Origin: an uncultured Gammaproteobacteria bacterium
GTDB lineage: Bacteria > Pseudomonadota > Gammaproteobacteria > CAKMZV01
Reading direction: 5' to 3'
Assembly: GCA_929200535.1 (NCBI GenBank)
Contig: CAKMZV010000004.1
Coordinates: forward strand, 40,654-104,653
Length of the DNA: 64,000 nucleotides
The notes under the pieces were generated by a model that did no database searches, was not told the origin of the DNA, and saw only the letters and a list, made by a program, of their open reading frames with translations. Of this stretch, positions 7,958 to 44,431 are shown in pieces; the first letter of the stretch is position 1, and each line of letters opens with the position of its first letter. The translations under genes were made by a program, and so were the position numbers.

Positions 7958-8116
7958 GAGACCTTTGCATAAAAGTATGGCAAAAGAAAAAAGATAAAAA
8001 ATCGTTCTGATTGAGGCGTGAAACGCAGCTAATACGTCCGTCTTCGCAAGTTTCACAACGATAATCAGGACGTTTTTTTACTTTTTTACTTGTCGTATCT
8101 TTTGTGCAAAGGTCTC
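7958..8116. mobile_element. MITE-like palindromic repeat, copy A (inverted orientation relative to the other full copies)
   Basis: Begins GAGACCTTTGCA and ends TGCAAAGGTCTC, with about 45-bp terminal inverted repeats. Internal GTGAAAC...GTTTCAC hairpin core. The same sequence recurs at 15184, 22335, 25101 and 44136. Confidence 0.8.
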
Positions 8117-8134
8117 AATATATAAAGTAAATAT

Positions 8135-8443
8135 ATGAATGTCGGAAATTTTAATTATCGTTTTGAAGGTCCATTTGCTAATTTAACATTTATTGAGGAT
8201 TACCCGGGTGTTTATGTCGTGCTGGGTAGCCACACTCAAGAAGAATGGGATATTATCGATGTGGGTGAGGCAGAAAAAGTATATTCTGCTCTTGAAGGGC
8301 ATAGCCGTACCTCTCTTTGGGAAGAAAAAAATTATGAGTATTTAAAGTATGCGGTGTACTATTGTGAGGAAGAGAAGCGTATGGCAATTGAGAAGCAGAT
8401 TAGGGAGCATTTTAAACCTTGCTGTACACCAGAGATAGCCTAA
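8135..8443 (+). CDS. hypothetical protein (102 aa)
   Basis: ORF lying between MITE copy A and hemW. No recognisable motif. Confidence 0.3.
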   Translation: MNVGNFNYRFEGPFANLTFIEDYPGVYVVLGSHTQEEWDIIDVGEAEKVYSALEGHSRTSLWEEKNYEYLKYAVYYCEEEKRMAIEKQIREHFKPCCTPEIA

Positions 8444-8448
8444 GCTGA

Positions 8449-9675
8449 ATGGCACACATTGCTTTATACATTCATATTCCTTGGTGTATAAAAAAATGTC
8501 CTTATTGTGATTTTAATTCGCATAATGCGAGTGTTTCTCCTGATTACAATCATTATGTAAAAATCCTATTAAGAGATTTAGACCATCAATTATCTTTATT
8601 TCCTGACACACAAAAAAGAGAGTTGAGTTCTATTTTTATTGGTGGCGGTACTCCAAGCTTATGCTCAGGTGATGCGATGCGGTATTTGTTGGAAGGAGTT
8701 TTTCAGCGTTTTGTTTGTTCTTCAGACATTGAAGTGACTATTGAGGCAAATCCAGGAACCGCAGAAAGCTCTTATTTTGAGGCGTATGTGCAAGCTGGAA
8801 TCAATCGCATTTCATTAGGCTTGCAAAGTTTTAATGATACTTCCTTACAACGCTTGGGGAGAATACATTCTTCCAAAGAAAATTTTCAAGCTGTAGAAAA
8901 AGCCAAAGCAGCTGGGTTTCAGAGAATTAATATTGATGTAATGTATGCCTTGCCAGAGCAAACGTTGGCAATGGCATTATCTGATGTAAATTCCGCATTA
9001 GCTTGTGAGGTGGAACATATTTCCTACTATCAATTGACTCTCGAAGAAAATACACTTTTTTATCGGCAAGTACCTAAGGGAATACCAAGTGAAGATTTAT
9101 GTTGGGATATTGCCACTCAAGGAAGCGAGCTTTTACACGCTAATCAATTTACAAATTATGAGGTTTCAGCATGGAGTCGTGGCGAGGCAAATAATTCACA
9201 ATGTCGGCACAATGTGAATTATTGGAAGTACGGTGATTACATTGGTATTGGAGCAGGGGCACATGGCAAACTCTCTTTTCAACAAGGTGAGAATTTAAAA
9301 ATTATCCGCACTCAACAAATTAGTTCACCGACAAGCTATATCGAAGCATACAGCAAGAAAAACGATACAAAAGCAAAGCCTTTAAAGGATTTTCCACTTG
9401 GACGTAGTTATGGAGGAATGCGTACACTTGAAGTATCAAAAGATGAAATTTTATTTGAATATATGCTCAATCGTTTGCGTTTAAATTCAGCGTTTAGCAT
9501 ACAACAATGTCAACAAATGACGGGGTTAGCAAAGCAGAAAATTCAACATTCTATAGACTTCGCGATTGAAAAGGATTTTTTAAAAGAAGTTTCTTTGAAT
9601 ATGACCTATCAAAAAACCCAACTCGGAAATCAATTTTTAAATGATTTGATTTGGGGTTTTAGTGAGAATGGTTAA
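8449..9675 (+). CDS. hemW: radical SAM heme chaperone HemW (HemN-like, oxygen-independent coproporphyrinogen oxidase family)
   Basis: CxxxCxxC radical-SAM motif near the N-terminus (CIKKCPYCDF). About 400 aa, HemN-like. Confidence 0.75.
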   Translation: MAHIALYIHIPWCIKKCPYCDFNSHNASVSPDYNHYVKILLRDLDHQLSLFPDTQKRELSSIFIGGGTPSLCSGDAMRYLLEGVFQRFVCSSDIEVTIEANPGTAESSYFEAYVQAGINRISLGLQSFNDTSLQRLGRIHSSKENFQAVEKAKAAGFQRINIDVMYALPEQTLAMALSDVNSALACEVEHISYYQLTLEENTLFYRQVPKGIPSEDLCWDIATQGSELLHANQFTNYEVSAWSRGEANNSQCRHNVNYWKYGDYIGIGAGAHGKLSFQQGENLKIIRTQQISSPTSYIEAYSKKNDTKAKPLKDFPLGRSYGGMRTLEVSKDEILFEYMLNRLRLNSAFSIQQCQQMTGLAKQKIQHSIDFAIEKDFLKEVSLNMTYQKTQLGNQFLNDLIWGFSENG

Positions 9676-9769
9676 TTTTTTTGGTAAAATTAAACAAGTT
9701 GTTATTTTGAGAGATTAACCGATTTTTATGGTTAATTATCGCTTTTTAACTACCTTTAAAAATATTTAA

Positions 9770-10900
<1,131 letters not shown>

Positions 10901-10912
10901 GAGGAGAGGGCA

Positions 10913-11761
10913 ATGAAAAAATTAGAAAGCATTAAAGAATTTGATGGATATTTAGAGCGTTATAGCCATTATTCGGAGTGTTGTCAATGTGAAATGGTTT
11001 TTTCAATATATTTGCCTAAACAGGCTGTACAAGAAAAAGTACCAGCACTTTATTGGTTATCTGGATTAACCTGTAGTGATGATAATTTCAGAGTTAAAGC
11101 AGGTGCACAACGCTACGCTTCTGAACAAGGGATTGCCTTAATTATTCCGGATACCAGCCCACGTGGTGAAGGTGTTATGGATTTCCCAGAACGTTATGAT
11201 TTGGGAATAGCTGCTGGCTTTTATGTGAATGCAACGGAATCACCTTGGGATAAAAATTACCAAATGTATAGCTATATCGTGGAAGAGTTGCCTGCTTTGA
11301 TTGAGGAGCATTTTCCCGTAGTTGCTGGAGTAAAATCAATTAGTGGACATTCTATGGGTGGGCATGGTGCATTAATTTGTGCTTTGAAAAATCCATCAGC
11401 CTATTGTTCAGTATCTGCATTTTCTCCCATTTGCCATCCGACACAGGTGCCTTGGGGAAAAGATGCTTTAGGAGCATATCTTGGTAATGATATGGAAAAA
11501 TGGCAACAGTATGATGCAGTGAATTTAGTTCAGAATGGTCATAAAGTCGAAACTATTCTTGTGGATCAAGGGACAGCCGATGAGTTTTTAAGCGACCAGC
11601 TTAAGCCTGAGGCGTTAATTGAGGCTTGCGAGCAACAGAAAATAAATCTTAATTTTCGTATGCAAGAAGGGTATGACCATAGTTATCATTTTATTAGTAG
11701 TTTTATTGGTGAGCATATTGCATATCATTCAAATTTTCTTAAGAAAGAAATGGGTGATTAA
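10913..11761 (+). CDS. frmB: S-formylglutathione hydrolase (esterase D family)
   Basis: GHSMGGHGAL serine-hydrolase motif, about 280 aa, directly downstream of frmA. Confidence 0.8.
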   Translation: MKKLESIKEFDGYLERYSHYSECCQCEMVFSIYLPKQAVQEKVPALYWLSGLTCSDDNFRVKAGAQRYASEQGIALIIPDTSPRGEGVMDFPERYDLGIAAGFYVNATESPWDKNYQMYSYIVEELPALIEEHFPVVAGVKSISGHSMGGHGALICALKNPSAYCSVSAFSPICHPTQVPWGKDALGAYLGNDMEKWQQYDAVNLVQNGHKVETILVDQGTADEFLSDQLKPEALIEACEQQKINLNFRMQEGYDHSYHFISSFIGEHIAYHSNFLKKEMGD

Positions 11762-11831
11762 TTTTTGTAGGCTACCTCTATTCACTACATACAGTTGATA
11801 GAGGTAATCTCCAACTTTTAAGGAGTGTTTT

Positions 11832-13298: not shown

Positions 13299-13312
13299 GC
13301 TTACATATTGTA

Positions 13313-13364
13313 TTTCACGTCTCAATCAGAACGTTTTTTTCTTTTGTCTTTATACAAAGGTCTC
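13313..13364. repeat. partial MITE copy B (right-arm fragment ending ...CAAAGGTCTC)
   Basis: TTTCACGTCTCAATCAGAACGTTTTTTTC...TACAAAGGTCTC matches the right arm of the full copies. Confidence 0.55.
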
Positions 13365-13409
13365 GGAGTAATCAGTAATGCTCACTCAAAAAAAGGTTCT
13401 TGAGGTGTT

Positions 13410-15170: not shown

Positions 15171-15183
15171 ATTCTTTTTTAAT

Positions 15184-15412
15184 GAGACCTTTGCACAAAA
15201 GATATGACAAGTAAAAAAAGTAAAAAATTGCCCTGATTCTCGTTGTGAAACTTGCGAAGACGGACGTATTAGCTGCGTTTCACGCCTCAATCAGAACAAT
15301 TTTTTATCTTTTTTCTTTTACCTGCAAGCAGTTCAAACACTGTTACTCTAAAGCTCGCAAGCTTGCCAAGAGTAAAAACGTTTTTTGTGCCATACTTTTA
15401 TGCAAAGGTCTC
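15184..15412. mobile_element. MITE-like repeat, copy C (left arm + hairpin module 1 + hairpin module 2 + right arm)
   Basis: Begins GAGACCTTTGCACAAAAGATATGACAAGTAAAAAAAG and ends CATACTTTTATGCAAAGGTCTC. Holds both the GTGAAAC/GTTTCAC module and the GTTACTCT/AGAGTAAC module. Confidence 0.8.
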
Positions 15413-17006
15413 AATCTATGACATTGGCTCGTAAAAACAAGATGAGTTCGGTGTTCTTCTTTTCAGTTGAACTAAATCCAACGAAACCACCACTGCCAGG
15501 GCTGTGTTGTGATTGTTTATCATCCTTATTTTGAATAAGTCCACCAATAACAGCAACTTCATTGGGTTGAATATGTAATACAGATTCCAACTCTCTTTCT
15601 CTAAGCACTGGGATTGGACTTACGATGTCGTTTTTTGCCAACTCTGGGTGCGGATCATTAACAAAATTGAAAATCCTGGAGATTGTCGGCTTGAGGTTAA
15701 TAATAAGTGAATTGTCTGGTAGGATATTGGCTGTTAAGGTAATCACTAAACCAACAGAAATAGATTTGGCTTGTGTCTCAAATGAGACACTACTGCCAGA
15801 GGTGTTTTGTAGTGTTTTTGCTTTGATTGTAAAATAAACCACATTATCAACGACCTTTAATAAAGCAGTTTGATTATTGATAAGTTTGATTTGTGGCGAG
15901 GAAAGTACCTTGGTATCACCAAATTTTTCAATTAACCTTGCACCAAAATTTAGGCTGATGCCATCTAAAACAGCGGTAATATTGGTAATAACTCTGGGGG
16001 CAGCACCAAGATTCGCCCCAATGGCTTGTTGTGATATGCTGTTATTATCCTCAAAAATACTCCAATCAATGCCCGCCTGATATTGATCATTTAATTCAAC
16101 TTCCATAATTGCCATTTCAATATGTGTTTGGCGTCGTGCTTGTTGGTTTATTTTTGTTAATATGCTTTTGACTTGTTTATGAAGAGCCTGTTTTCCATAG
16201 ACTGAAATAATCCCAGTTTCTGGATGAACCAGAATTTGCACTTCATTGTTAGTTTGTTGTGCTTGGGTGTTGTTAAGTTTTGTCGAGGACAAGGAAAGAA
16301 TGTTGTTTGTGGCTGGGATTTTTTGATAGACAGTGCTTAAGGTAGATAACATTTTTTCCAAGCGACCCCAAAAAATGTTTTTAGATTCATTGGTGATTTC
16401 AACACTTGCTCCGGTATTTTGATTATTTTGTGTTGAGCCAATATTTTGACTAAAGCGTGTTTTGCTTAAGCTACTTCGTTTTATATTGGGGTAATTGACG
16501 GCATATTCTTTCCAATAAGCTTTGTCGTAGGTAACAACAAGAGAACGTTTATTAAGGGTAAATCGAGTGTTGGTAAGTTGAGCAAGATCTTGTAAAACAT
16601 CAGACAACGGCGTTTTTAAAGCTCGATAATGTTTTACCATAATCGTTTTTGAGGTGTTGTTTCGATAGCCAAAATTATAGCTTTTACTTAACCCATCAAG
16701 AGCTTTGTTGAGACTAATTTTTTCAAAATTAAGGCTAATAATGCGTTGCCAAAATGGGTCTTTTTTATGTGATTTTGCTTTTTTAAGTGAAGAGTTCTGC
16801 TTTCTGATTGGGGTGGCTTTTAGATAGGATTGTGTGATTGATTTTGAGGCAGTTGAATTTTTTTCTGTCCATTTTGGAGCTTGCCATTCTTTAATATTAG
16901 GGCGTTCAACTGGCACACACGCAAATAATGTGAAGCAAATAAGACTTGCTTTAACCTTAAATAAGGTTGTTTTTAAAGTTCTATAGATTGAGTAAGGAGC
17001 AAGCAA
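15411..17006 (-). CDS. secretin-family lipoprotein (MshL/PilQ-like type II/IV pilus secretin)
   Basis: N-terminal lipobox (LFACV). C-terminal secretin-like motif (PVLRERELESVLHIQPNEVAVIGGLIQN...). Confidence 0.65.
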   Translation of the reverse strand: MLAPYSIYRTLKTTLFKVKASLICFTLFACVPVERPNIKEWQAPKWTEKNSTASKSITQSYLKATPIRKQNSSLKKAKSHKKDPFWQRIISLNFEKISLNKALDGLSKSYNFGYRNNTSKTIMVKHYRALKTPLSDVLQDLAQLTNTRFTLNKRSLVVTYDKAYWKEYAVNYPNIKRSSLSKTRFSQNIGSTQNNQNTGASVEITNESKNIFWGRLEKMLSTLSTVYQKIPATNNILSLSSTKLNNTQAQQTNNEVQILVHPETGIISVYGKQALHKQVKSILTKINQQARRQTHIEMAIMEVELNDQYQAGIDWSIFEDNNSISQQAIGANLGAAPRVITNITAVLDGISLNFGARLIEKFGDTKVLSSPQIKLINNQTALLKVVDNVVYFTIKAKTLQNTSGSSVSFETQAKSISVGLVITLTANILPDNSLIINLKPTISRIFNFVNDPHPELAKNDIVSPIPVLRERELESVLHIQPNEVAVIGGLIQNKDDKQSQHSPGSGGFVGFSSTEKKNTELILFLRANVID

Positions 17007-17016
17007 GACATTGTAA

Positions 17017-17530: not shown

Positions 17531-18130
17531 TCAATTATCAGCCTTTATGCCTTCTTCGGTAAAAATAACACCTTCAGCATCTCTAAGGAGGTTTTGTGTT
17601 TTCTTTTTAAGCCTTTCTTGTTCTTCATGAGCTCGTTGTTTTTCAAGGTTCAAATCACTTATAGGATTAAGTTCTTCAAAGTAGCGAGCAATAGAATTAA
17701 TCTGTTCGTCATTTAAGAATAAGGTTTGGCGACTCATCAGCAATGCCCTGCCAGTGAGTAAAATACTGTAAGATTCTGCATCACGATAATAGATTAGACG
17801 ATCAACGATTTGTTGTCCGGTTAAGCCTAAAATTCGAGGTGCCTCTACACGACTTAGATAGCTTACGCCAATAGGACCATGGCAAGTTTGGCAGTTATTT
17901 TTGTAGATTCTACTTCCATAGGAAACTTCGCCCTTTATAGAACTATATTGAAAACTAGGGACTTTTTTTACTTCTTCGCTCAAATCAGAATAAACTGTTT
18001 TTTTAGCAAGGGTATTTGTTACAAAAAAAAGCCCCAATAATCCGATTACTGTTGCTACTGATTTTATGGGGCTAGGGTTTTGGTGAAGATTGTTTATTCG
18101 ATTATTCATAATCCCGAGTGTGTGATTCAA
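17531..18130 (-). CDS. membrane-anchored c-type cytochrome
   Basis: Single N-terminal TM/signal segment and a CQTCHG heme-binding motif. Confidence 0.6.
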   Translation of the reverse strand: MNHTLGIMNNRINNLHQNPSPIKSVATVIGLLGLFFVTNTLAKKTVYSDLSEEVKKVPSFQYSSIKGEVSYGSRIYKNNCQTCHGPIGVSYLSRVEAPRILGLTGQQIVDRLIYYRDAESYSILLTGRALLMSRQTLFLNDEQINSIARYFEELNPISDLNLEKQRAHEEQERLKKKTQNLLRDAEGVIFTEEGIKADN

Positions 18131-18340: not shown

Positions 18341-19897
18341 ATGCAAAAAATTTTAAATTCAAATAAATATCTAAACTACTCACTTATACTACTGCTTATT
18401 AGCGTGGGGTTGCGCTTTGGGGTGGCGTATGATTTGCCACTAACGGCGGATGAGGCACATTATGCACTCTATGCACTTCATCTTGATTGGAGTTATTTTG
18501 ATCATCCTCCTATGGTGGGCTGGTTGCAATCCATCGTACTTTCTATAGGTATAGGGTCTTCTGAATTTGTTTTAAGGATTGTACCGAATGTTTTACACTT
18601 TTTAATAGGTGTGGCACTATATTTTCTGTCCTTACGTATATACCCTAAACATCCTTTAGTGGGATTTTTTGCGGTTATTCTATTTGCGTTTTCCTTAATG
18701 TTCCAGTTAATGGGTATCGTTATGCTACCAGATACTCCCTTATTACTTTTTACCATCTTAAGTATTTTTTCTTTTGAGAGGGCGTGTAATACAAACCAAT
18801 GGCATTCTTGGTTGTTATATGGCATCTTTTTAGGGTTAATGGGGCTTTCAAAATATACTGCCATTCTTATTGCCTTAGGTTATTTTCTTTGGATTTTATT
18901 TAATCAGCCCAAGCTTTTTTTAAATATTAAGTTATGGTTTTCGGCAATTCTTGCAGTAATTATTATTAGTCCAGTGATTTTTTGGAATATTGAAAATGAA
19001 TGGGCTTCTTTTCTATATCAAATCGAGCATAGTAATGTGGAGGGTAGTCAATGGTCTTGGCTATCATTCTTTCGAGCGCAAATGATAAATGTATTGTCAT
19101 ACGGTTTCTTCTTGTTTGTTGGTCTATGGCTTTTTATTGTCATTACAATTAAGAAGTTTATAAAAGTAGTGTGTACGAAATATAAAATAAAAAAAGAGCT
19201 AAATAATAGCACTCATAAAAACCTGACACCGTGTGATGTACAAAATCTTATTAAGTTTGTTGTTTTAATTTATTTTTTTGTTTTTGTGTACTCCAGTGCC
19301 CAAGGTGGGCATTATTTGCCCCATTGGGTCTCTCTTCCTTTTATCTTATTAATGCCTTGGCTTGCAGGAAAAATTATTGGTGGGCAATGGCAATATAAGT
19401 TTGAGGGAAGTAAAAAGAGCGTATTGGCAATTGGAAGCATTATTATTTTACTCATACCCTTTGTGCTTGCGGCAACCTTATTAGCGGGGAAATTAGGAAC
19501 TCAAGCAACTTATGAAGCATGGAGGGGAGTTATTGGCTGGCAAGAAAGCACACTTCGTGCTAAACAAATTATTGAGGAAGATAGTTCGCTACCGCCAAAT
19601 ACACCAATCTATGTTGCCAATTGGTCAGAAGCCAGTCGGGTTGCTTGGTATGCACATCCAACTCCGGTACTTCCTATTGATAACCGAACTGATCAATTTG
19701 ATTTTTGGTTTAACTCAGCTAATTTAGAATCCCAAGGGGTAAATTTCATTCAAAGAGGCATTCTCTTAGCACCACTAAATCATGATGAACTAAAACAAGC
19801 AATGAACACATTTAAGAAATGTAATTTATTACAAAAAATAAATTATTCTAAATTCTCTCAAAACTTCTCTTTTGGATTATGGGATTGTTTGCCGTAA
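18341..19897 (+). CDS. ArnT/PMT-like glycosyltransferase (GT39/GT83 family), probable lipid A or glycan modifier
   Basis: About 11 TM segments. N-terminal loop motif (DEAHYALYALHLDWSYFDHPPMVGWLQ), typical of this family. Confidence 0.65.
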   Translation: MQKILNSNKYLNYSLILLLISVGLRFGVAYDLPLTADEAHYALYALHLDWSYFDHPPMVGWLQSIVLSIGIGSSEFVLRIVPNVLHFLIGVALYFLSLRIYPKHPLVGFFAVILFAFSLMFQLMGIVMLPDTPLLLFTILSIFSFERACNTNQWHSWLLYGIFLGLMGLSKYTAILIALGYFLWILFNQPKLFLNIKLWFSAILAVIIISPVIFWNIENEWASFLYQIEHSNVEGSQWSWLSFFRAQMINVLSYGFFLFVGLWLFIVITIKKFIKVVCTKYKIKKELNNSTHKNLTPCDVQNLIKFVVLIYFFVFVYSSAQGGHYLPHWVSLPFILLMPWLAGKIIGGQWQYKFEGSKKSVLAIGSIIILLIPFVLAATLLAGKLGTQATYEAWRGVIGWQESTLRAKQIIEEDSSLPPNTPIYVANWSEASRVAWYAHPTPVLPIDNRTDQFDFWFNSANLESQGVNFIQRGILLAPLNHDELKQAMNTFKKCNLLQKINYSKFSQNFSFGLWDCLP

Positions 19898-21341: not shown

Positions 21342-21364
21342 AAAAATCCATAGTACTTGAAAAA

Positions 21365-21390
21365 GGGAGACTTCGGTCTCCCTTTTTTTT
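21365..21390 (+). terminator. Rho-independent terminator of porin gene
   Basis: GGGAGAC-TTCG-GTCTCCC perfect 7-bp GC-rich stem followed by TTTTTTTT. Confidence 0.85.
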
Positions 21391-21659
21391 GCAAACAAAT
21401 GCTAAGGTTGCAAGCAGAGATATTTTGTTTCAATCTCTCTACGAGTCATATTTAATATAGGTAGTCTATAGTAATAACACTCTACCAAATTTAACTTAAG
21501 AATTATTATATGTTGTTACCCTAAGCCCTCGTCCTTGTCATGCAGTATTCTCCTTCTTTGTCATCCTGAATTTATTTCAGGCTCTAACCAATCTTCAGTT
21601 ACCCTATGTGTTAAACGTAGAAAATTTAGTTGGAACCGTGTATGTTATAATTATTCTTT

Positions 21660-22220
21660 ATGGAACAAGATACTTTAAATAAACCATCTAAATCTCGAAA
21701 AAAAACAACATTCACCGTTACAGAAGATAAGGTGATTGATTTGTTAATGCACGTTGCTACCAGAGATGAAGTCAATAGTTCTCGCAACGAATTAAGGGCG
21801 GAAATTGCTGAAGTACGCATTGAACTAAAGGCAGATATAGCCAATTTAGATTCTAAAATTGAAGCTGTTCGGATTGAATTAAAAACAGAGATTGCTGAAG
21901 TACGCACTGAACTAAAGGCAGATATAGCCAATTTAGATTCTAAAATTGAAGCTGTTCGGATTGAATTAAAAACAGAGATTACTGAAGTACGTACTGAACT
22001 AAAAGCAGAGATTGATGCTTTACGCACTGAACTAAAAGCAGATATAGCAAGCTTAGATTCTAAAATTGAGGGTGTACGCACAGAACTAAAAGCAGAGATT
22101 GATGCTTTACGTGAAATGTTCCAAGAACTTAACGGACGTCTTGTGACGATCGGTATTGCACTATTTGTGTTATCTTTGGGTTCTTTTTTAATGCCTCTTG
22201 CTCTTAAGTTGTTTTTTTAA
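21660..22220 (+). CDS. tail-anchored coiled-coil protein with 11/18-residue (29-aa) tandem repeats
   Basis: EVRIELKADIANLDSKIEAVRIELKTEI repeated in tandem. C-terminal hydrophobic anchor (LVTIGIALFVLSLGSFLMPLALKLFF). Confidence 0.6.
   Translation: MEQDTLNKPSKSRKKTTFTVTEDKVIDLLMHVATRDEVNSSRNELRAEIAEVRIELKADIANLDSKIEAVRIELKTEIAEVRTELKADIANLDSKIEAVRIELKTEITEVRTELKAEIDALRTELKADIASLDSKIEGVRTELKAEIDALREMFQELNGRLVTIGIALFVLSLGSFLMPLALKLFF
21805..22110 (+). repeat. 87-bp tandem repeats (two near-identical units plus degenerate third) inside coiled-coil CDS
   Basis: ATTGCTGAAGTACGCATTGAACTAAAGGCAGATATAGCCAATTTAGATTCTAAAATTGAAGCTGTTCGGATTGAATTAAAAACAGAG recurs with one or two substitutions. Confidence 0.8.
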
Positions 22221-22334
22221 TTTTGTTTTTTTCTTGCTTTTTTACACGGCTCATATTTAATAGAGGTAGTTTAAAAACCACTATTCTAAGGCTTAAATTG
22301 ATAAATTTTTTGGAATATGATTTTTATATTTATT

Positions 22335-22492
22335 GAGACCTTTGCACAAAAGATATGACAAGTAAAAAAGCAAAAAATTGCCCTGATTTTCGTTGTGAAA
22401 CTTGCGAAGACGGACGTATTGGCTACGTTTCACGCCTCAATCAGAACAATTTTTTATCTTTTTTCTTTTGCCATACTTTTATGCAAAGGTCT
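22335..22492. mobile_element. MITE-like repeat, copy D
   Basis: Same left arm, GTGAAAC...GTTTCAC core and right arm as copy C, without hairpin module 2. The track ORF 22355-22588 is just a translation of this repeat. Confidence 0.8.
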
Positions 22493-22590
22493 CTTATTAA
22501 TTTTTTAACTTACTTGCCCGTGTTTTCTTTATCAATCAAGCCCTATCCTCGTGAGGATTATTTTTTGAATAATTTAGTATTTATTTAACT

Positions 22591-23825: not shown

Positions 23826-24686
23826 ATGCCTGTTAGCCCAATTTTTCTTAATGGGGAGTGGATGCCTTTAGAACAGGCAAGCATATCGCCTTTGGATCGA
23901 GGTTTTCTTTTTGGTGATGGATGCTATGAGATTATCCCGGTTTACAGACAAAAAATTTTCCGTTTACAAAACCATTTGGATCGTTTGGCGTATTCTATGA
24001 ATGCTATTGGTATTGAAAGTGATTATACCGATAAAGATTGGACTCAAATATTTAAGCGATTGGCAAGTCAGGCTGCTCCAGATAATTTTAAATCTTACAT
24101 TTATTTACAAATCACTCGTGGTGTGGGGAAAAATAGAGACCATACCATTAGTGAAAAATTTTCTTCCACAGTTTTTGGTTATTTGGAGCTTACGGAATTT
24201 CCTTCCAACTCTCTGCTACCCAAACCGATAAATGTGTGTTTATTGGAGGATTTTCGCTGGCAACGTGGGGATATTAAGGCAATTGCATTATTGGGTTCGG
24301 TTTTAGCAAGAAAAAAAGCAATGGAGGAGGGTTTTGATGATTGTATTTTTTATCGGGATAATGAAATTGTCGAAACTTCAGCAAGCAACCTTTTTATTGT
24401 TGAGGATGGGGTGGTTAAAACGCCACCAATCTCCCCTTTATTATTAAGTGGGATTACTCGTTTAATCTTATTAGAATTGTTTGAAAAATACCGCATTCCA
24501 TTTTCTGTTGAAAAACTGAGTGTAGAGCAACTAAAAGGTGCCTCTGAAGTATGGTTAAGTAGCTCAATAAAAGAATTGGTGCCGATTATTTCAGTTGATG
24601 GTGAAAAAATAGCCGATGGAAAAATTGGCGAAATTTTACCGCAAATTTGGTTGCATTGGCAACACTATATTATGGAGAGTATATGA
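23826..24686 (+). CDS. class IV (D-amino-acid / branched-chain) aminotransferase
   Basis: Fold-type IV aminotransferase N-terminus (GFLFGDGCYEIIPVY). About 286 aa. Confidence 0.6.
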   Translation: MPVSPIFLNGEWMPLEQASISPLDRGFLFGDGCYEIIPVYRQKIFRLQNHLDRLAYSMNAIGIESDYTDKDWTQIFKRLASQAAPDNFKSYIYLQITRGVGKNRDHTISEKFSSTVFGYLELTEFPSNSLLPKPINVCLLEDFRWQRGDIKAIALLGSVLARKKAMEEGFDDCIFYRDNEIVETSASNLFIVEDGVVKTPPISPLLLSGITRLILLELFEKYRIPFSVEKLSVEQLKGASEVWLSSSIKELVPIISVDGEKIADGKIGEILPQIWLHWQHYIMESI

Positions 24687-24901
24687 AGGTTAATATTGTA
24701 ATTGAGAAGGATAATTCTGGTTATTATGCTTTTTGTCCAGAAATGAAGGGATGTCAGTCCCAAGGCAATTCACTTGATGAAGTTTTATCAAATATTAAGG
24801 AGGCGGTAGAACTTTATCTTGAAACATTATCAGTTAAGGAAAAAGAAGTTTGTCTTAGTAAAGAAATTTTAACAACTTCTTTTGAGGTGTCGGTTGCCTA
24901 A
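24683..24901 (+). CDS. hicB: type II antitoxin HicB family
   Basis: MKVNIVIEKDNSGYYAFCPEMKGCQSQGNSLDEVLSNIKEAVELYLE matches the HicB N-terminal fold. ATG overlaps the TGA of the upstream gene. Confidence 0.6.
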   Translation: MKVNIVIEKDNSGYYAFCPEMKGCQSQGNSLDEVLSNIKEAVELYLETLSVKEKEVCLSKEILTTSFEVSVA

Positions 24902-25094
24902 ACTTCCAAGATTAACAGCAGAACAAGCAGAGAAAATGCTTCTGAAAGCAGGTTTTGAACATAGTAGAAGTAAGGGTAGCCATCGTATTTATATAAGAGA
25001 CACAGAAAGATTTGTTCTTCCATTCCATAGCGGTAAAACACTACATCCTAAAATTGTAAAAAATTTAGTTGAAATTATTAAATATGACACCTAA
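24882..25094 (+). CDS. hicA: type II toxin HicA family mRNA interferase
   Basis: About 65 aa with KMLLKAGF...SKGSHRIY motif. Overlaps the hicB stop. Probably uses a TTG/GTG alternative start. Confidence 0.6.
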   Translation: MRCRLPKLPRLTAEQAEKMLLKAGFEHSRSKGSHRIYIRDTERFVLPFHSGKTLHPKIVKNLVEIIKYDT

Positions 25095-25100: not shown

Positions 25101-25249
25101 GAGACCTTTGCACAAAAGATATGACAAGTAAAAAAGTAAAAAACGTCCTGATTTTTATCCGCAAGCAGTTCAAACACTGTTACTCTAAGGCTCGCAAATT
25201 CACCAAGAGTAAAAACGCTTTTTGTGCCATACTTTTATGCAAAGGTCTC
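25101..25249. mobile_element. MITE-like repeat, copy E (left arm + hairpin module 2 + right arm)
   Basis: GAGACCTTTGCACAAAAGATATGACAAGTAAAAAAG ... GCAAGCAGTTCAAACACTGTTACTCTAAGGCTCGCAAATTCACCAAGAGTAAAAACG ... CATACTTTTATGCAAAGGTCTC. Confidence 0.8.
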
Positions 25250-25543: not shown

Positions 25544-28500
25544 ATGGTGGAAGCTCTTACCTTTCAAGAAATTATCACACGTTTAAATTACTTTTGGCAA
25601 CAAAAGGGATGCGTGCTGATTCAGCCCTTGGATATGGAGGTTGGGGCAGGTACTTTTCATCCGGCGACTTTTTTGCGTGCGATTGGTCCTGAGCCATGGC
25701 GTTGTGCCTATGCTCAACCTTCGCGTCGTCCTACGGATGGTCGCTTTGGAGATAATCCTAATCGATTACAGCATTATTATCAATATCAAGTCTTACTAAA
25801 GCCAGCCCCAGATAATTTGCAGGCGTTATATTTACAATCTTTGCAGGTAGTGGGCATAGATTTATCGAAAAATGATGTTCGTTTTGTTGAGGACAATTGG
25901 GAATCGCCAACCTTAGGGGCTTGGGGTTTAGGCTGGGAGGTATGGCTTAATGGTATGGAGGTAACACAATTTACTTATTTCCAACAAGTTGGTGGTTTGG
26001 AGTGTAAACCGGTGAGTGGTGAATTAACGTATGGTTTGGAACGTCTTGCAATGGCTTTGCAGGGGGTTGATAATGTGTATGACTTAGTATGGACTACCTA
26101 TGATAATACGACTATTTCGTATCATCAGGTATATCATCAAAATGAAGTTGAGCAATCACAATATAACTTTGAACTTGCTGATGTTGAAAATCTTTTTCAG
26201 CAATTTGAAAAATGCTATCAAATTTGTGGTGAATTGGTTAAAAAAGAACTCCCCTTGCCAGCGTATGAGCAAGTGATGAAGGCTTCTCATTTTTTCAACT
26301 TATTAGATGCGCGCAAGGCAATTAGCGTGACTGAAAGACAACGCTATATTTTTAGAGTGCGAGAATTGGCGTATCAAGTTGCCAAGAGTTATTCACAAAA
26401 ACGTGAGCAATTGGATTACCCATTAGGGATGATAGAAACCACTCATAAAAAGAATGATAGGGAAGTAGCACCTAATAAGTTGCTTGATATAAAAACAGGT
26501 GATTTTGTATTGGAATTAGGATGTGAAGAATTGCCTATGGATTCAGTATTGCCTCTTGGTAAAGGATTAAAAGATGGGTTTAAGAATGTTTTAACAGAAG
26601 TAGGGTTGTTTTTTGAAGACATTGTAATGTATGCAACTCCAAGGCGTTTGGCAGTGAAAATTTCAGGTCTAAATGCGATGCAAGAGGGGAGTCGGAATAA
26701 ACGCAAAGGTCCTCGTTGCGATGCTCCTGAAAAAGCACGAGAGGGTTTTGCACGCAGTTGTGGAGTATCAATCAATGATTTACGTACTGAAACAATATCT
26801 AATGTAGATTATTTAGTTTATGATGAGGTCGTTGAAGGTAGGCATTTTAGTGCATTACTCCCAGAATTATTAGAATCAATTATCAGTAGATTACCATTGA
26901 AGAAAACAATGCGATGGGAAGAAAATGAGTATCAATTTGTCCGCCCTGTGCGTTGGATAGTGGCACTTTTCAATGACTGCGTTATGCCTGTTGTGTTTTT
27001 TGGTTTGAAGGCAGATCAATATACCTATGGTCATCGTATGGACCCGCTTGCTAGTAATCAAGAGGGGGTGAAAATTGAGTTAGGAAATGCTGCGGACTAT
27101 GAGGCAACGCTTAAACAACATTCGGTAATCGCAAGCTTTACCGAACGAAGAGCAATTATTTTACAGCAATTAGAAGAACAGGCAAGTCAAAATTCAGCTA
27201 AAGTGAATATGGATGAAAATTTGCTTAATCAAGTAACTGCCTTAAATGAATTCCCAACGGTAATAACTGGTGCTTTTCCAAATCGGTTTTTATCTTTACC
27301 CAAAGAATGTTTAATTACGACCTTACAAACGCATCAAAAATATTTCACCCTCAGTGATCAATTAGGTCAATTACTTCCAATGTTTTTAACCGTTTCAAAT
27401 TTACCGAGTGAAGATTTGAGTTTAGTTAGAAAGGGGAATGAACGAGTTGTTATTCCTCGGCTTGAGGATGCTGAGTTTTTTTGGCAACAAGATAAGAAAC
27501 GTCCGTTGCAAGATTATTTTGAAAAATTAGATTCTGTGGTATTTGTTGAAGGTTTAGGAACAATGCAGCAAAAAGCCCAACGGATTGAAAAATTGGCTCT
27601 TTGGATGGCACAATTTTTACAACAAGATTCTGATAAAATTCAGCGAATTTGCAAGTTGATAAAATGCGATTTGGTAACTGATATGGTGAATGAATTTCCT
27701 GAATTGCAAGGCATTATGGGGCAACACTATGCACTTGAAAATGGTGAATTACCAGAGGTTGCAGAAGCTATCGCAGAGCATTATTTACCAAAACAAGCAC
27801 AAGGGGAACTACCATCCTCTATGCTTAGTGCGATTGTTGCTATTGCCGATAAAGTGGATACCATTGTAGGCATTCATATTGTCCAAAAAGAACCAAGTGG
27901 TAGTAGTGATCCTTTTGGACTAAGGCGTGCGGCTCTTGGGGTAATGCAAATTATTGTAGATCAAAAAATACATTTAAATTTACAAGAACTGTTAACAAAA
28001 TCAATTGACAACTGGCAAAATCAATTGCAGGAAGAAAAGCAATTAGAGGTGTTATCTAAGGTTGAGACTTTTATGTGGGGGCGTTTATATGCTTTATACA
28101 CCAAAGAGAAGCAAGTGCCGGCACCACTCTATCAAGCTGTGATGGCGGTTAAACCATTAAATCCTTATGAGTTTGAGCTTCGTCTTATTGCAGTGCAAAA
28201 ATTTGTCAAACTACCAGAAGCAAAATCATTGAGTGAAACGAATACACGCATTAAAAATATTTTGCAAAAGAATCCTAATGATCAGGGTGCTTTGGTTGAT
28301 GAGGGCTTGTTACATATTGAAGAAGAAAAAGAGCTGTATGTTTGTTTGCAAAAGGTAGAGGAAAAAATCCAACATATTACGAACGATTATTTTACTATTC
28401 TTGAAGCATTAAGTGAGCTGGCTGAGCCTGTGGAGCAGTTTTTTTCCAATGTAATGGTGATGGATGAAGATCTTGCAAAACGCAAAAATCGCCTTGCGTT

Positions 28501-28561
28501 ATTATCTCAATTACGTCAATGTTTTATGCCAGTAGCTGATATATCATTATTGCAATTATAA
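25544..28561 (+). CDS. glyQS: glycine--tRNA ligase, fused alpha (GlyQ) and beta (GlyS) subunits
   Basis: N-terminal 300 aa is GlyQ-like ([34 protein letters not shown]). The remainder is GlyS-like. Single 1005-aa ORF. Confidence 0.85.
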
Positions 28562-33834: not shown

Positions 33835-33875
33835 ACTCAAAACATTTATTGTTTATCTATTCATTGTAAAGGTCT

Positions 33876-33898
33876 CATACTTTAAGAGTATGCTTTTT
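33876..33898 (+). terminator. weak candidate terminator after pgsA
   Basis: CATACT-TTAAG-AGTATG hairpin followed by CTTTTT. AT-rich 6-bp stem. Overlaps a short MITE-end-like fragment (TGTAAAGGTCTCA). Confidence 0.3.
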
Positions 33899-34170: not shown

Positions 34171-34199
34171 CTTTTGCCATACTTTTATGCAAAGGTCTC
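34171..34199. repeat. partial MITE right-arm fragment (copy G)
   Basis: CTTTTGCCATACTTTTATGCAAAGGTCTC is identical to the 3' arm of the full copies. Confidence 0.6.
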
Positions 34200-36689: not shown

Positions 36690-36784
36690 ATTTTTGTAGA
36701 GTTTGATTGTTTTCACTCTTCTATATAGGAACGAGAAGGTGAGTTAACAATTATTAAACATAAAAACATAAAAGGAGTATTATT

Positions 36785-37687: not shown

Positions 37688-37712
37688 GCAACAATTCATA
37701 ACTTCAACAAGA

Positions 37713-38696: not shown

Positions 38697-39145
38697 AAGC
38701 TCTTTTTGGTGCAGGTTGTTTTTGGGGAGTGCAAGAGAAGTTTCAAAATCTTGAGGGTGTTATGGATACTCAAGTAGGTTATGCTGGTGGAAACACAGAA
38801 AACCCAACTTATCAAGAAGTGTGTACAGGAGCAACGAATCATGCTGAAGTGTGTTTGGTTGAGTTTGATGAAAATAAAATATCATACGATCAACTACTTG
38901 CCTATTTTTTTCAAATACACAATCCAACCACCTTGAATCAGCAAGGTTATGATATTGGCTCGCAGTATCGTTCTGTCATTTATTATGTTGATGAAACACA
39001 GCACCAAAGTGCTTTACAAACAAAAGAAAATTTAATTAAGCAAGGCACTCAAGTGGTTACCGAAATTTCACCGTTACCCTATTTTTGGAAGGCAGAATTG
39101 TATCATCAACATTATATTAAAAAATCAAGAGGGAATTACACTTGA
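38693..39145 (+). CDS. msrA: peptide methionine sulfoxide reductase MsrA
   Basis: GCFWG active-site motif at the N-terminus. 150 aa. Confidence 0.9.
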   Translation: MKALFGAGCFWGVQEKFQNLEGVMDTQVGYAGGNTENPTYQEVCTGATNHAEVCLVEFDENKISYDQLLAYFFQIHNPTTLNQQGYDIGSQYRSVIYYVDETQHQSALQTKENLIKQGTQVVTEISPLPYFWKAELYHQHYIKKSRGNYT

Positions 39146-39267
39146 TTTTTTAATATGAGGGCATAGATTTACTTTCAGGTAAGCATCATCCATTTTATTT
39201 TTTAATAGAGGTAGCCTTATAACTATGAGCGGCTCTTTTTAATTGATTACAACAGGAGATTTTTAAT

Positions 39268-40233: not shown

Positions 40234-43066
40234 TGCAGATATTCGTCGTATTATAGCAAAAGAATTGACTATATTCTTTTCCTCGCCGATGGCATATATA
40301 TTTTTGGCAGCTTTTGCTGCTATCACTCTTTTTGTTTTTTTCTGGGTAGAATCATTTTTTTCTCGCAATATTTCTGATGTTCGTCCGTTATTTGAATGGA
40401 TGCCCATTCTTCTTATTTTCTTAAGTGCAACATTGACGATGCGTTTATGGAGTGAGGAAAAACGTATTGGAACAGTAGAGCATGTACTGACTCAACCAGT
40501 CGGCATTTGGAGTTTTGTAATCGGTAAGTTTATTGCCTGTGTTGTGCTGTTATTGATTGCCTTGTTAATTTCTCTTCCGATTCCTATTTCGGTTGCATTT
40601 ATTGGAGATTTAGATTGGGGTCCTGTGTGGAGTGGCTATCTTGCGACCTTTTTACTTGGATCTGCTTATATTAGCATTGGCTTGTTTGTGTCTGCACGTA
40701 GCGATAATCAAATTGTTAGTTTAATTTCAAGCGTGTTGGTATGTGGGGCGTTTTATCTTATTGGCTCATCTGTAATTACTGGATTATTTGATAGTATTAT
40801 TGGAGAGGTGCTACGCTCTATCGGCACTGGTTCTCGCTTTGATTCAATTACTCGTGGCATTATTGACATACGAGATTTTTATTATTACATCAGTTTAATC
40901 GGTGTTGGTTTGGCTCTTAACGTTTACGTTTTAGAAAAATCACGTTGGTCGAAAAAAACGAACGCAGATAAGCATCGTTCTTGGCACATAGCAACGGTAT
41001 TGATTGTGGTCAATATTTTATTTGCCAATGTTTGGCTTTCACAAGTTAATCAGTTGCGTTATGATACGACTGAAGGAAAAATTTACTCTATTTCAAAGTC
41101 CACTTCAAATGTGCTAAGACAGTTACAAGAGCCGTTACTTATTCGTGGCTATTTTAGTGCACAAACGCACCCCTTATTAGCGCCATTAGTACCACAAATA
41201 TTGGATTTGGTAAGAGAGTATGAGGTGGCAGGTAAAGGCTTGGTTAAAGTTGAAATTGTTGATCCAGCGGATGATCCAGCTTTAGAGGATGAGGCTAATA
41301 ATAAATATAGCATTCGCCCAACACCTTTTCAGGTGGCTGATCGTTACCAAACTTCTGTGGTCAACTCCTATTTTGATATTTTGTTGCAATACGGCAATGA
41401 ATTTAAAAATCTCAGCTTTAGAGATCTTATTGAAGTTCGTCAGAAAAAAGAAACAGAAATAGACGTTTTATTAAGAAATCCTGAATACGATTTAACCAAT
41501 GCTATTAACAAAATTCTTCAAGCATACCAATCTGCGGGAAGCATTTTTGATCGTACCAAAGGATTGAAGTTTATGGCATATATTTCAGAAGATGATAAAT
41601 TGCCAGACGAGCTCAAGAAATTTAAAGGCACAGTTTTAGAGCAAATACAAGCTTTAGAGCAAGAATCAAACGGGAAATTAACTTCTGAGGTGATTGCTCC
41701 AGAGACCAATGGCGGTGCTGTTGCCGAACAAATTGCTCGTGATTATGGTTTTAAACCAATGGTAGTGAGCCTTGCAGATACGCGCCAGTTCTTCTTTTAT
41801 ATGTTATTGATTGAAGGGAGCAAGGCTGTTGTGGTTCCAATCGGCGACTTACAGGCTGGAAGTTTTGAAAAAGGAATGCGTTCGGCTATTAAAAGATTGT
41901 CTTCTGGTTATACACGAACAGTTGGATTATATGCCCAACCTCCAGCTCTTATTCCTAACCAGTCCCCACTCAATACACCACGTAGTGATTATCAAATTGT
42001 GTCAGAAGCTCTTAGAACAGATTTAAATGTGACAGATGTTGATTTGAACCAAGGTGCTATTGGCTCTGAAGTGGATTTATTAGTCTTGCTTGGGGCGAAT
42101 GAATTATCAGAAAAACAATTATTTGCTGTGGATCAATATTTAATGCGTGGAGGTACTATTATTGCCTCCGCCTCTCCTTATACGGCATCACTCTCAAATC
42201 GCTCTATTTCTATGAAAAGAAATAAAGGGAACTTTATTCAATGGATAGAAAAATTAGGATTAACCTTTGACGAGGGTATTGTGATGGATGAGCGTAGTGC
42301 GCCCTTTCCAATTCCTGTGGTTAGGAAAGTAGGGGGCTTTGAATTTCAACAAATTAAGTTATTACAATACCCTTATTTCAGTGAAATTCGTGAAGATGGA
42401 CTAAACTCAGCTGATAATATCACCAATTCTTTAAAAAAAGTGGTGATGGCATGGGCAAGCCCGGTTATGATTGACGAGCAATCGACCACTCATCAGGTAG
42501 TATCACTATTAAAAAGCTCTCAACGTGCTTGGCTATCTAATAATACTAACGTTGTTCCCAAACTTAAGCAGGATGGTACAAGTGGTTTTGAACAACCCAC
42601 ACAAGTCCAGCAATACCATTTGGGAGCAAGCATAAAAGGGCGTTTTGATTCTTGGTTTGCTGGAAAAGCATCGCCTTTATCTGCAGGTTCAACGGACGGT
42701 CTATCATTTAACAATGTTATTGAGCGTTCTCCAGAATCGGCTAAAATAGTATTATTTTCTTCAAGCGAGTTTCTTAAAGATCGCGTGATGCAACTCATTG
42801 GTTCAGCGAATCGCACAGACTTTAAAGAAAACATTACATTGCTTAAAAATGCAGTCGATGTATCGTTAGAAAGTGAGGGCTTACAAGATATTCGTGCACG
42901 TAGCAACTTCAATCGTACCTTGCCACGGACAGAAGTATCAGAGCAACAAATAGTAGAATATGGAAATTACATAGTTGCGTTACTATTATTAACATTAATT
43001 GGAATAGGACGAAAAATTGCCTACAGGCGTCGTCTTAAAGCGTATATTGTCGCTACTAAAGCATAG
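40223..43066 (+). CDS. ABC-2 permease fused to GldG-like auxiliary domain (947 aa)
   Basis: N-terminal about 250 aa with 6 TM (ABC-2/GldF-like). Large extracytoplasmic domain. C-terminal TM anchor. Overlaps the ATPase stop. Confidence 0.6.
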   Translation: MLLSADIRRIIAKELTIFFSSPMAYIFLAAFAAITLFVFFWVESFFSRNISDVRPLFEWMPILLIFLSATLTMRLWSEEKRIGTVEHVLTQPVGIWSFVIGKFIACVVLLLIALLISLPIPISVAFIGDLDWGPVWSGYLATFLLGSAYISIGLFVSARSDNQIVSLISSVLVCGAFYLIGSSVITGLFDSIIGEVLRSIGTGSRFDSITRGIIDIRDFYYYISLIGVGLALNVYVLEKSRWSKKTNADKHRSWHIATVLIVVNILFANVWLSQVNQLRYDTTEGKIYSISKSTSNVLRQLQEPLLIRGYFSAQTHPLLAPLVPQILDLVREYEVAGKGLVKVEIVDPADDPALEDEANNKYSIRPTPFQVADRYQTSVVNSYFDILLQYGNEFKNLSFRDLIEVRQKKETEIDVLLRNPEYDLTNAINKILQAYQSAGSIFDRTKGLKFMAYISEDDKLPDELKKFKGTVLEQIQALEQESNGKLTSEVIAPETNGGAVAEQIARDYGFKPMVVSLADTRQFFFYMLLIEGSKAVVVPIGDLQAGSFEKGMRSAIKRLSSGYTRTVGLYAQPPALIPNQSPLNTPRSDYQIVSEALRTDLNVTDVDLNQGAIGSEVDLLVLLGANELSEKQLFAVDQYLMRGGTIIASASPYTASLSNRSISMKRNKGNFIQWIEKLGLTFDEGIVMDERSAPFPIPVVRKVGGFEFQQIKLLQYPYFSEIREDGLNSADNITNSLKKVVMAWASPVMIDEQSTTHQVVSLLKSSQRAWLSNNTNVVPKLKQDGTSGFEQPTQVQQYHLGASIKGRFDSWFAGKASPLSAGSTDGLSFNNVIERSPESAKIVLFSSSEFLKDRVMQLIGSANRTDFKENITLLKNAVDVSLESEGLQDIRARSNFNRTLPRTEVSEQQIVEYGNYIVALLLLTLIGIGRKIAYRRRLKAYIVATKA

Positions 43067-43081
43067 GAGGTAAAAAATATA

Positions 43082-44008
43082 ATGAATAAGAAAAATCTAA
43101 TTTTATGGGTCGTTTTAGGACTACAAGTTGTATTAGCTAGTGTTTTTGTATTTCAAGAATCAGGATTATCAAAAAAAGATAAAGGAGGTTTTGTATTTGC
43201 TAATAATGCAGATGCGACTCTTGCTGATGAGATAACAATTGTTTCATTAGATCAAAAAGATAAACCACTCACTCTGAAAAAAGAGGGTAACCAGTGGAAT
43301 ATTAGCGAGCTTATCAAAGCTAGTAATTCTAAGGTGACTGAAGCTTTAAATAAAATACGCGACATCAAACCCTCTTGGGCAGTGGCAACAACAAAAGAAA
43401 GTCATAAACGCTTTGAAGTTTCCAAAGAGAAATTTCAACGCCAAATTACTTTGGCTATTGATGGAGAAAAATATACATTCTTTCTTGGAACTTCGCCAGG
43501 CTATCGACAAGCTCATGCACGTATGGCTGGTTCTGATAACGTTTATGCTGTGCAACTTAATGTTTTTGAGTTTTCCACCGCTCAAGATGATTGGTTGGAT
43601 ACAGAGCAGCTACAGATAAAAGAAGAAATAACCTCAATTCAAGTAACTGACTATGAATTTACATTAACCGATGGTAAGTGGACAGTAAATGATTTAAGGG
43701 GTTCAAATTCATCTCAAAATCAAGAGACGCCTTCGACTACCAGCACACAAACAAAGCAAGTTGTGGCTGAACGAGCTAATGATATAGCTGATGCATTAAA
43801 AAATTTACAATTGATTAGCGTTAGTGAACGCACAAACATTGATAAGCCAAGCGAGAAACTGGTTATAAAAACCAAAAAATCAGAAATTGTTTTGTTGCTT
43901 TTAGCGACTGATGAAGGATATAAGCAGATTCAACGAAAAGGCGATTCTATAGTGTATGGCGTGACTCAAGATACTTACAATAGCCTCTTGCCTGTACCAA
44001 AAAAATAA
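43082..44008 (+). CDS. DUF4340-like protein (GldG-associated)
   Basis: N-terminal TM/signal, about 300 aa, immediately downstream of the GldG-like gene. This neighbourhood is typical for DUF4340. Confidence 0.45.
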   Translation: MNKKNLILWVVLGLQVVLASVFVFQESGLSKKDKGGFVFANNADATLADEITIVSLDQKDKPLTLKKEGNQWNISELIKASNSKVTEALNKIRDIKPSWAVATTKESHKRFEVSKEKFQRQITLAIDGEKYTFFLGTSPGYRQAHARMAGSDNVYAVQLNVFEFSTAQDDWLDTEQLQIKEEITSIQVTDYEFTLTDGKWTVNDLRGSNSSQNQETPSTTSTQTKQVVAERANDIADALKNLQLISVSERTNIDKPSEKLVIKTKKSEIVLLLLATDEGYKQIQRKGDSIVYGVTQDTYNSLLPVPKK

Positions 44009-44135
44009 CCTTTTTTGTTATAACACATATATTATTTTCGTCGTTGCGAGGGAGTAGGGTTGCCACGTTTTTCTCGTACTAACGTGATATTTTCAGAGTT
44101 CTTTTATTTGCTTCCAGAATCGTGGGAACAATCTG

Positions 44136-44431
44136 AAACCTTTGCACAAAAGATATGATAAGTAAAAAAGTAAAAAATCGCCCTGATTTTTATTCGCAAG
44201 CGCTTCAAACGCTGTTACTCTAAGGTTCGTAAACTCACCAAGAGTAAAAACGCTTTTTGTGTTGTGAAACTTGCGAAGACGGACGTATTAGCTTCATTTC
44301 ACGCCTCAATCAGAATAATTTTTTATCTTTTTTCTTTTACCTGCAAGCAGTTCAAACACTGTTACTCTAAGGCTCGCAAGCTCGCCAAGAGTAAAAACGT
44401 TTTTTGTGCCATACTTTTATGCAAAGGTCTC
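44136..44431. mobile_element. composite MITE-like repeat, copy H (left arm + module 2 + module 1 + module 2 + right arm)
   Basis: About 296 bp. Begins (GA)AACCTTTGCACAAAAGATATGATAAG and ends CATACTTTTATGCAAAGGTCTC. Carries two copies of the GTTACTCT/AGAGTAAC module flanking one GTGAAAC/GTTTCAC module. Confidence 0.8.

Follow-up and report, generated by a model that had tools for sequence, protein, structure and literature searches.

The window analysed here is a 64,000-nucleotide stretch of contig CAKMZV010000004.1 (positions 40,654 to 104,653 of the forward strand; assembly GCA_929200535.1) from an uncultured gammaproteobacterium, and belongs to a metagenome scaffold of 108 kb (ENA ERZ23492265). 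The host is Gram-negative, with secretin and porin genes and a G+C content of ~36%, and housekeeping genes occur throughout. Dispersed between these genes is a family of short palindromic repeats bounded by GAGACCTTTGCA...TGCAAAGGTCTC, five complete units of which (159, 229, 159, 149 and 297 bp, elements A to E) lie in the window. The 12-mer GAGACCTTTGCA, allowing one mismatch at most, is found at 14 sites in the window against 0.21 expected, a count that none of 100 shuffled sequences reached. The elements are very probably non-autonomous DNA transposons, or MITEs (miniature inverted-repeat transposable elements), whose basic unit is 159 bp long. They form a previously undescribed family of an otherwise ordinary kind of element, the exception being a long hairpin that is preserved on only one strand.

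Element A (7958–8116, minus orientation, 159 bp) consists of a left arm (L), a core termed M1 and a right arm (R), as read from its termini and sequence. It lies 6 bp past the stop codon of a LytTR gene and 18 bp ahead of the following ATG, and its target-site duplication, AATAT, is found at 7953–7957 and 8117–8121. Since its left arm is at the high coordinate, the better-folding strand is the plus strand; the predicted RNA folds of the two strands have energies of -71.3 and -53.1 kcal/mol. Element B (15184–15412, plus orientation, 229 bp; L-M1-M2-R) carries a further module, M2, and is located between convergent genes, its final two bases forming part of the TGA stop codon of the secretin open reading frame (ORF; stop at 15411–15413, minus strand). 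Element C (22335–22493, plus, 159 bp; L-M1-R) is flanked by TTATT at 22330–22334 and 22494–22498, and its minus strand is predicted to fold with -72.8 kcal/mol (z = -12.3), compared with -57.4 for the plus strand. Element D (25101–25249, plus, 149 bp; L-M2-R) is devoid of M1 and sits 6 bp past the stop of a HicA-like gene and ~11 bp ahead of the start of a DUF493 gene, according to gene calls mapped from the near-identical locus L120. Element E (44135–44431, plus, 297 bp; L-M2-M1-M2-R) has a left terminus mutated to GAAACC and is flanked by AATCT at 44130–44134 and 44432–44436.

Three remnants accompany these units, all in plus orientation. The first (13313–13364) consists of the 3' portion of core M1 and a degenerate right arm that ends in TACAAAGGTCTC. 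The second is a solo right terminus at 34171–34199, in which 29–30 nt are identical to the right arm and 30 nt are 100% complementary to the end of element A, with nothing of the element upstream. The third, TGTAAAGGTCTC at 33865–33876, is a possible degenerate right terminus with one mismatch and faint similarity upstream. The original prediction had placed the five full copies correctly to within one base (C ends at 22493 and not 22492, E starts at 44135 and not 44136), and two of its three remnants stand while the third amounts to this weak 12-mer. It had also described all copies as intergenic, which holds apart from the two bases of B in the secretin stop codon: no other ORF of at least 100 amino acids overlaps a unit. 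It had overlooked a sister element of 159 bp with different termini, the 5-bp duplications that flank the units, and two copies that lie to the left of the window.

The arms (GAGACCTTTGCACAAAAGATATGACAAGTAAAAAAGTAAAAAA on the left and ...TTTTTTATCTTTTTTCTTTTGCCATACTTTTATGCAAAGGTCTC on the right, with the core between them) are ~43–45 nt long and 74–76% complementary, in agreement with the imperfect terminal inverted repeats (TIRs) of roughly 45 bp proposed before. The termini form a perfect 12-bp inverted repeat, past which ~30 nt of the left and right arms are conserved yet not identical to each other. The M1 core of A and C is a hairpin, GTGAAAC...GTTTCAC, nested in CTGATT...AATCAG. M2 is a 74-nt accessory hairpin at 15316–15389 of B (plus strand), and sequence matches locate further copies at 25153–25226 in D and at 44188–44261 and 44335–44408 in E. 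The four copies have 90–100% identity, and none occurs outside the elements in any locus fetched. M2 is found either behind CCTGATTTT or behind the CTTTT of the right arm, its two alternative insertion points, and folds as a side hairpin of its own in the predicted structures. The length variants are the 159-bp basic unit with one or two copies of M2 added, D having M2 in the absence of M1 instead; its structure would be the one expected to remain after an E-like unit recombined between its two copies of M2. Because M2 lacks inverted termini and no clear duplication surrounds it, it is treated as an accessory hairpin module rather than a nested transposon.

Repeats recovered from a metagenome scaffold, as this window was, could in principle reflect an artefact of the assembly or a duplicated segment. 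When the units were compared with the window by BLAST, the matches were the units and the three remnants only and never the flanks, so that no segmental duplication is involved. The copies diverge from one another by 3–10%, their flanks are unrelated, and independent assemblies, made from four samples, of strains ~98.9% identical to this one carry these copies at identical sites, as does an NCBI metagenome-assembled genome (MAG). An artefactual origin is thus hardly credible.

The transposition footprint was examined in 35 distinct elements, some of them in the window and others in metagenomes and a Thiotrichaceae MAG, with mismatched flank pairs as the control. A perfect 5-bp direct repeat borders 14 of the 35, where 0.35 would be expected (binomial p = 2e-19), and with one mismatch at most the number rises to 23 against a control rate of 7.7%. 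Other lengths gave 0 of 35 (4 bp) and 2 of 35 (6 bp). A 5-bp duplication this sharp, rich in AT and variable in sequence, is what a transposase making staggered cuts leaves behind. IS5 proper makes a 4-bp duplication. The terminus is of the GAGACC(T/A)TTGCA type of the ISNme1/IS1106/ISPg1 group; it is identical to those of ISNme1 and BrickBuilt_4 and has one mismatch to that of ISPg1 (PMC4596501 Table 2). Both ISNme1 and ISPg1 belong to the IS5 family, and the MITEs attributed to them, ATR and BrickBuilt/MITEPgRS, carry the same terminus (PMC4596501, PMC2575886), while duplications of ISPg elements range from 2 to 9 bp (PMC4596501). The elements would be mobilised in trans by a DDE transposase of the IS5-family type.

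The units themselves, which at 149–297 bp lie in the ~50–800 bp range of bacterial MITEs, have no coding capacity, and the absence of a transposase from the 64 kb, as stated in the original prediction, is true for each ORF of at least 100 amino acids with a Pfam result. The same holds for ~30 kb of additional contig; ORFs 2360–3679, 6359–6964 and 8135–8443 gave no Pfam match, and 17531–18130 was left out of the scan. A search of all loci for a parent insertion sequence (IS), by lone termini and by distant pairs of TIRs, gave none. As no IS with these ends was found, it is the 12-bp terminus, together with the literature, that points to an IS5-family partner. The proposal of non-autonomous, modular, MITE-like elements is nevertheless borne out by the TIRs, the lack of coding capacity, the dispersal, the 5-bp repeats and the IS5-type terminus, which all agree.

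The family extends beyond this genome in a related form. The exact pattern of TIR plus arm had 0 matches in genome contigs and 0 in metagenome contigs, and a degenerate pattern of terminus and arm start retrieved 35 metagenome contigs; in viral contigs the degenerate pattern gave no matches, or chance matches inside genes only. A chance find added L037, a contig of the Thiotrichaceae MAG with related units. Together, L037 and the metagenome contigs (L085–L119) hold ~30 related units, mostly of 157–160 bp, with homologous arms and a different core (...TAATAGC.NGGCTATTG...), and deletion forms of 63–86 bp occur too. L037 also has, at 127–525, a 399-bp TIR-bounded composite of a 159-type unit and ~245 nt of other palindromic sequence, possibly a nested element. 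A BLAST search of plasmids with element E returned no match, a literature search for the arm sequences found none, and Rfam gave nothing in the window at the gathering score and a chance-level match at a permissive threshold (E = 0.63, element E). The repeat does not therefore appear in Rfam, and its termini and duplication length are unlike those of Correia and ERIC. The MITEs of Thiomargarita are different elements.

Each unit folds from end to end as a single stem of ~65 pairs (z = -12.3 for element C). A conserved bulge lies ~19 nt from the end of the hairpin, and an A run and a T run border the hairpin of the core. Covariation was assessed in an alignment (A1) of 21 units from different loci, whose consensus stem has 60 pairs. 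Compensatory double changes are seen at 28 of these 60, and 93.6% of the cells are paired compared with 84.1% when partners are shuffled, with none of 500 shuffles as high, although the 21 aligned copies are related and cell counts consequently make independent events appear more numerous than they were. Sliding the partners by 1–3 columns leaves 39–54% paired. The unpaired columns of the stem are purine-purine loops or bulges and not concealed A.C pairs. In DNA palindromes, neutral compensatory changes can also arise through template switching (PMC8794818), and since template switching can give covariation, covariation alone is no proof of selection.

The two strands of the hairpin are not equivalent. 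The bottom strand, defined as the one starting GAGACCTTTGCAT[AG]AAAGTATGGC, folds better in all 26 full-size units, its average advantage being 21.3 kcal/mol under RNA parameters and 6.6 under DNA parameters, and the consensus-fold energies are -60.5 kcal/mol for the bottom strand and -17.2 for the other. An A.C cell on the bottom strand is a G.U pair on the opposite strand, and the alignment contains 142 G.U cells versus 22 A.C cells, with 19 versus 2 columns having at least three such cells. The asymmetry spans three sub-families with different cores, one of which also has different termini.

A comparison of shared and private variants locates the origin of this bias. Among 18 metagenome-type units, all from different loci, variants of pairs present in at least two units (shared) comprise 20 G.U, 2 A.C and 3 others, while private variants, present in a single unit, comprise 17 G.U, 11 A.C and 22 others and are near the expectation for undirected decay (Fisher's test, shared versus private: p = 0.0002 when G.U is compared with all other variants, p = 0.023 when it is compared with A.C). 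G.U exceeds A.C 10-fold among the shared variants and only 1.5-fold among the private ones. Because the G.U bias is found in the locus-shared and not in the private variants, it belongs to the lineages that make new copies. This strand-specific bias, confined to propagated variants, cannot be produced by template switching, and folding of one strand is thus inferred to matter for proliferation. The copies that multiply would be those whose bottom strand still folds, and a folded single strand, either single-stranded DNA (ssDNA) or RNA, would have a part in proliferation, perhaps by joining the ends of the element, which duplex DNA of so short a unit could not bring together by looping. The difference between the strands is larger under RNA parameters, but among DNA mismatches, too, G.T is the most tolerated. 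That proliferation may need a folded single strand of one polarity, from replication ssDNA or from RNA, beside transposase-bound duplex ends is put forward tentatively, and it is less probable than not.

Given the strong RNA-type covariation and the G.U bias, it could be supposed that the elements are structured RNA modules selected by the host, terminator-like or processed by RNase in the manner of SPRITE or ERIC, which are conserved for a function in neighbouring transcripts and whose mobility is only historical. RNA energy parameters give a strand asymmetry three times that obtained with DNA parameters, the A and T runs surround the core hairpin in the way of a bidirectional terminator, many copies are found no more than 7 bp from a stop codon or between convergent genes, and every copy is conserved between strains. 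However, with respect to the gene that reads into the element, the stable strand is sense in 9 cases and antisense in 9 (p = 1), with no difference in stability between the two groups; host transcription does not explain the strand bias. The G.U bias in locus-shared variants argues for selection on proliferation and not at each locus. Compared with SPRITE-type terminators, which are G+C-rich hairpins with a T run directly behind them and a bias to the 3' ends of genes, the A/T runs and the many stop-adjacent copies are present, yet the consensus is silent in the simple terminator scan, which does not call the elements, and orientation is unbiased. Rfam contains no match, and a canonical terminator at ~21364–21390 indicates that the host does not depend on the elements. 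A search by eye for internal sigma-70 promoters, with a promoter and terminator scan, found nothing convincing within the elements. A role as host RNA modules is thus unlikely. Transcripts in the stable orientation would nevertheless form a long double-stranded RNA hairpin with A/U runs beside it, which could terminate or be processed, and given the predicted stem of ~65 pairs with these runs, local effects are plausible. From the point of view of the host, the copies would mostly be tolerated passengers in short intergenic spacers.

A strand-specific hairpin with a conserved bulge ~19 nt from its end, in lineages that tolerate G.T and not A.C as they proliferate, also recalls ssDNA hairpins moved by an HUH/Y1 enzyme, as in REP/RAYT and IS200/IS605-type PATEs, or attC-like folded sites. 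Against such a mechanism stand the long TIRs of the DDE (IS5-family) type and the variable 5-bp target duplications, which IS200/IS605, REP and attC elements are not known to make. The unit is 159 nt and not 20–40 nt long, it carries neither a GTAG nor a CGTC tag, the ORFs with Pfam results include no RAYT, TnpA-Y1 or integrase domain, and copies occur in both orientations and not in arrays. Movement of this kind is therefore highly improbable, and readings of the repeats as CRISPR, attC or REP were rejected on their architecture.

The interpretation of the repeats as MITEs has to be weighed against several observations, in addition to the relatedness of the aligned copies and the possibility of template switching. 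Elements B (TTAAT versus AATCT) and D have no 5-bp duplication. No IS with these ends was seen in the window, in ~30 kb beyond it, in related loci or in viral contigs. Among the strains available, all of them ~98.9% identical with shared insertions, no clean pair of filled and empty sites was seen, and the sole strain difference is one additional copy, truncated and located at the margin of a variable island (L125). Finally, since target-duplication lengths vary within the IS5 family, the length of 5 bp speaks neither for nor against assignment to it.

The sister family mentioned above (family 2) is represented by a full element of 159 bp at 1910–2068 (plus orientation), which matches the profile of the main family with an nhmmer E value of 6.5e-8. 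Its arms and core are homologous to those of the main family and its termini differ (GGATACTTCTATTA...; GGATACTTCTATTAAATATGAC... / ...CATATCTAATAGAAGTAGCC). The minus strand folds with -63.3 and the plus strand with -39.9 kcal/mol, an asymmetry as in the main family; a 5-bp duplication is not visible at this copy. A solo arm of family 2 lies at 22230–22273 (plus), a fragment at 21441–21468, and two family 2 termini at 11758–11821 may form a mini-hairpin of 64 bp.

Two further copies of the main family lie just left of the window, ~6–8 kb before its start (L082 17444–17602 and 18941–19098). The pair is in inverted orientation and brackets a single aminotransferase gene, an arrangement like that of a composite transposon; as the outer flanks share no 5-bp repeat, the two look like independent insertions. 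The copy at 18941–19098 provides the GA of the TGA stop codon of the gene upstream. Seven full copies are thus present in ~74 kb, a density of about one per 10–12 kb (~12 kb over ~92 kb of the genome). Correia elements in Neisseria reach roughly one per 10 kb, a similar figure, so the density is high, as originally predicted, and not unprecedented. Units often occupy very short spacers. The copies are clustered in the 2–45 kb part of the window, and the last 19 kb (45000–64000) contain neither repeat family despite intergenic spacers. A walk of ~30 kb further along the contig found no transposase, and no more copies in its last 10 kb.

Contigs of other assemblies start or end inside the repeats, those of two assemblies starting inside element C. 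Left of the window is an island that varies between strains (L125 7440–10389 versus L124 10624–15102). In one strain it encodes two large proteins of unknown function (580 and 566 amino acids), and in the other a FitA-like protein, an HNH protein, a 406-amino-acid protein and a 3'-truncated repeat located 77 bp inside the breakpoint. A HicB/HicA toxin-antitoxin pair at ~24683–25094, called in locus L120, is directly upstream of element D, and a PhdYeFM antitoxin gene adjoins another remnant left of the window.

The neighbourhood has several further features. The intrinsic terminator at ~21364–21390 follows the porin gene and consists of GGGAGACTTCGGTCTCCC and then TTTTTTTT. A coiled-coil ORF at 21660–22220 contains an 87-bp (29-codon) repeat in four tandem copies (21780–22106). 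The alpha and beta subunits of glycyl-tRNA synthetase are fused in one protein of 1005 amino acids (25544–28561), while most of the proteobacterial matches retrieved are adjacent separate genes; a search with the fused GlyQS protein found no close relative among GTDB representatives, the best full-length match being 47% (Xenorhabdus-type glyQ-glyS). Synteny with marine Gammaproteobacteria is weak and only suggestive. A yidC gene was called at L127 18700–20708 (PF14849, PF02096), ~29–31 kb to the left of where the window begins; judged by eye from the raw sequence, the region immediately upstream of the gene appears to encode rpmH and rnpA. With yidC and the apparent rpmH and rnpA there, the scaffold would lie close to the replication origin. 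The GC skew is positive over the entire window.

Among known repeats, the closest are the ATR of Neisseria, a proposed derivative of ISNme1, and the BrickBuilt/MITEPgRS elements of P. gingivalis, whose 12-bp terminus is the same or one base different (PMC4596501). All are non-coding, intergenic and present in multiple copies, and MITEPgRS is modular too, the number of its internal repeat units being variable (PMC2575886). The likeness is judged on the terminus and on published descriptions, and the hosts, Neisseria and a member of Bacteroidota, are unrelated to the present one. The repeats that flank BrickBuilt elements are irregular (2, 4 or 5 bp), whereas those of the present family are sharply 5 bp, and unlike ATR and BrickBuilt the whole unit is one hairpin of a fixed 159 bp. 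The species that carry ATR and BrickBuilt have a known partner IS, while none was seen in ~92 kb of this genome.

Correia elements (NEMIS/CREE) are similar in size (~100–155 bp) and also intergenic, and the hairpins of their transcripts are cleaved by RNase III (PMC2229807); the original prediction had drawn this analogy. They have TIRs of 24 bp (24–26) of other sequence and a TA duplication (PMC2229807 Table 1), in contrast to the IS5-type terminus and 5-bp duplication found here. ERIC/IRU shares the long imperfect palindrome, and the effects of ERIC on neighbouring transcripts depend on orientation (PMC2229807); its TIRs are 7 bp with TA at the termini (PMC2229807 Table 1), and its sequence has no relation to the present family. 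The family is not a member of Correia, ERIC or RUP, though it works alike.

The BOX elements of Streptococcus pneumoniae and the BIMEs of enterobacteria share with the present family mosaic modules, a variable internal copy number, an intergenic location and predicted RNA folds. BIMEs are built of 35-bp REPs and are linked to RAYT enzymes. BOX and BIME elements are not known to have this type of TIR and target duplication, and unlike their modules M2 sits within a classical TIR-bounded unit. REPs and BIMEs are recognised by 20–40-bp palindromes, tags and a RAYT, and the present repeats differ in having 159-nt units and a GAGACC terminus, with no Y1/HUH enzyme among the ORFs with Pfam results. 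The tags of REPs are GTAG or CGTC (PMC3733652).

The repeats have practical as well as scientific consequences. They fragment assemblies of this uncultured host, three independent assemblies breaking there, and one copy marks the edge of the strain-variable island. Since units lie within bases of stop codons and sometimes supply the stop codon itself, they can affect gene ends and operon transcripts. As a MITE family the repeats are routine, and the strand-specific, proliferation-linked hairpin is the sole feature of specialist interest. The family provides a natural experiment, in which variants that spread to new loci can be set against variants that arose after insertion, and among those that spread, only changes that keep one strand paired were passed on (20 versus 2). 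If a folded strand of one polarity does take part in proliferation, a strand-specific structural step would be added to the standard picture of DDE-mobilised MITEs, and it could explain how the ends are joined in a unit of 159 bp, which is about one persistence length of DNA.

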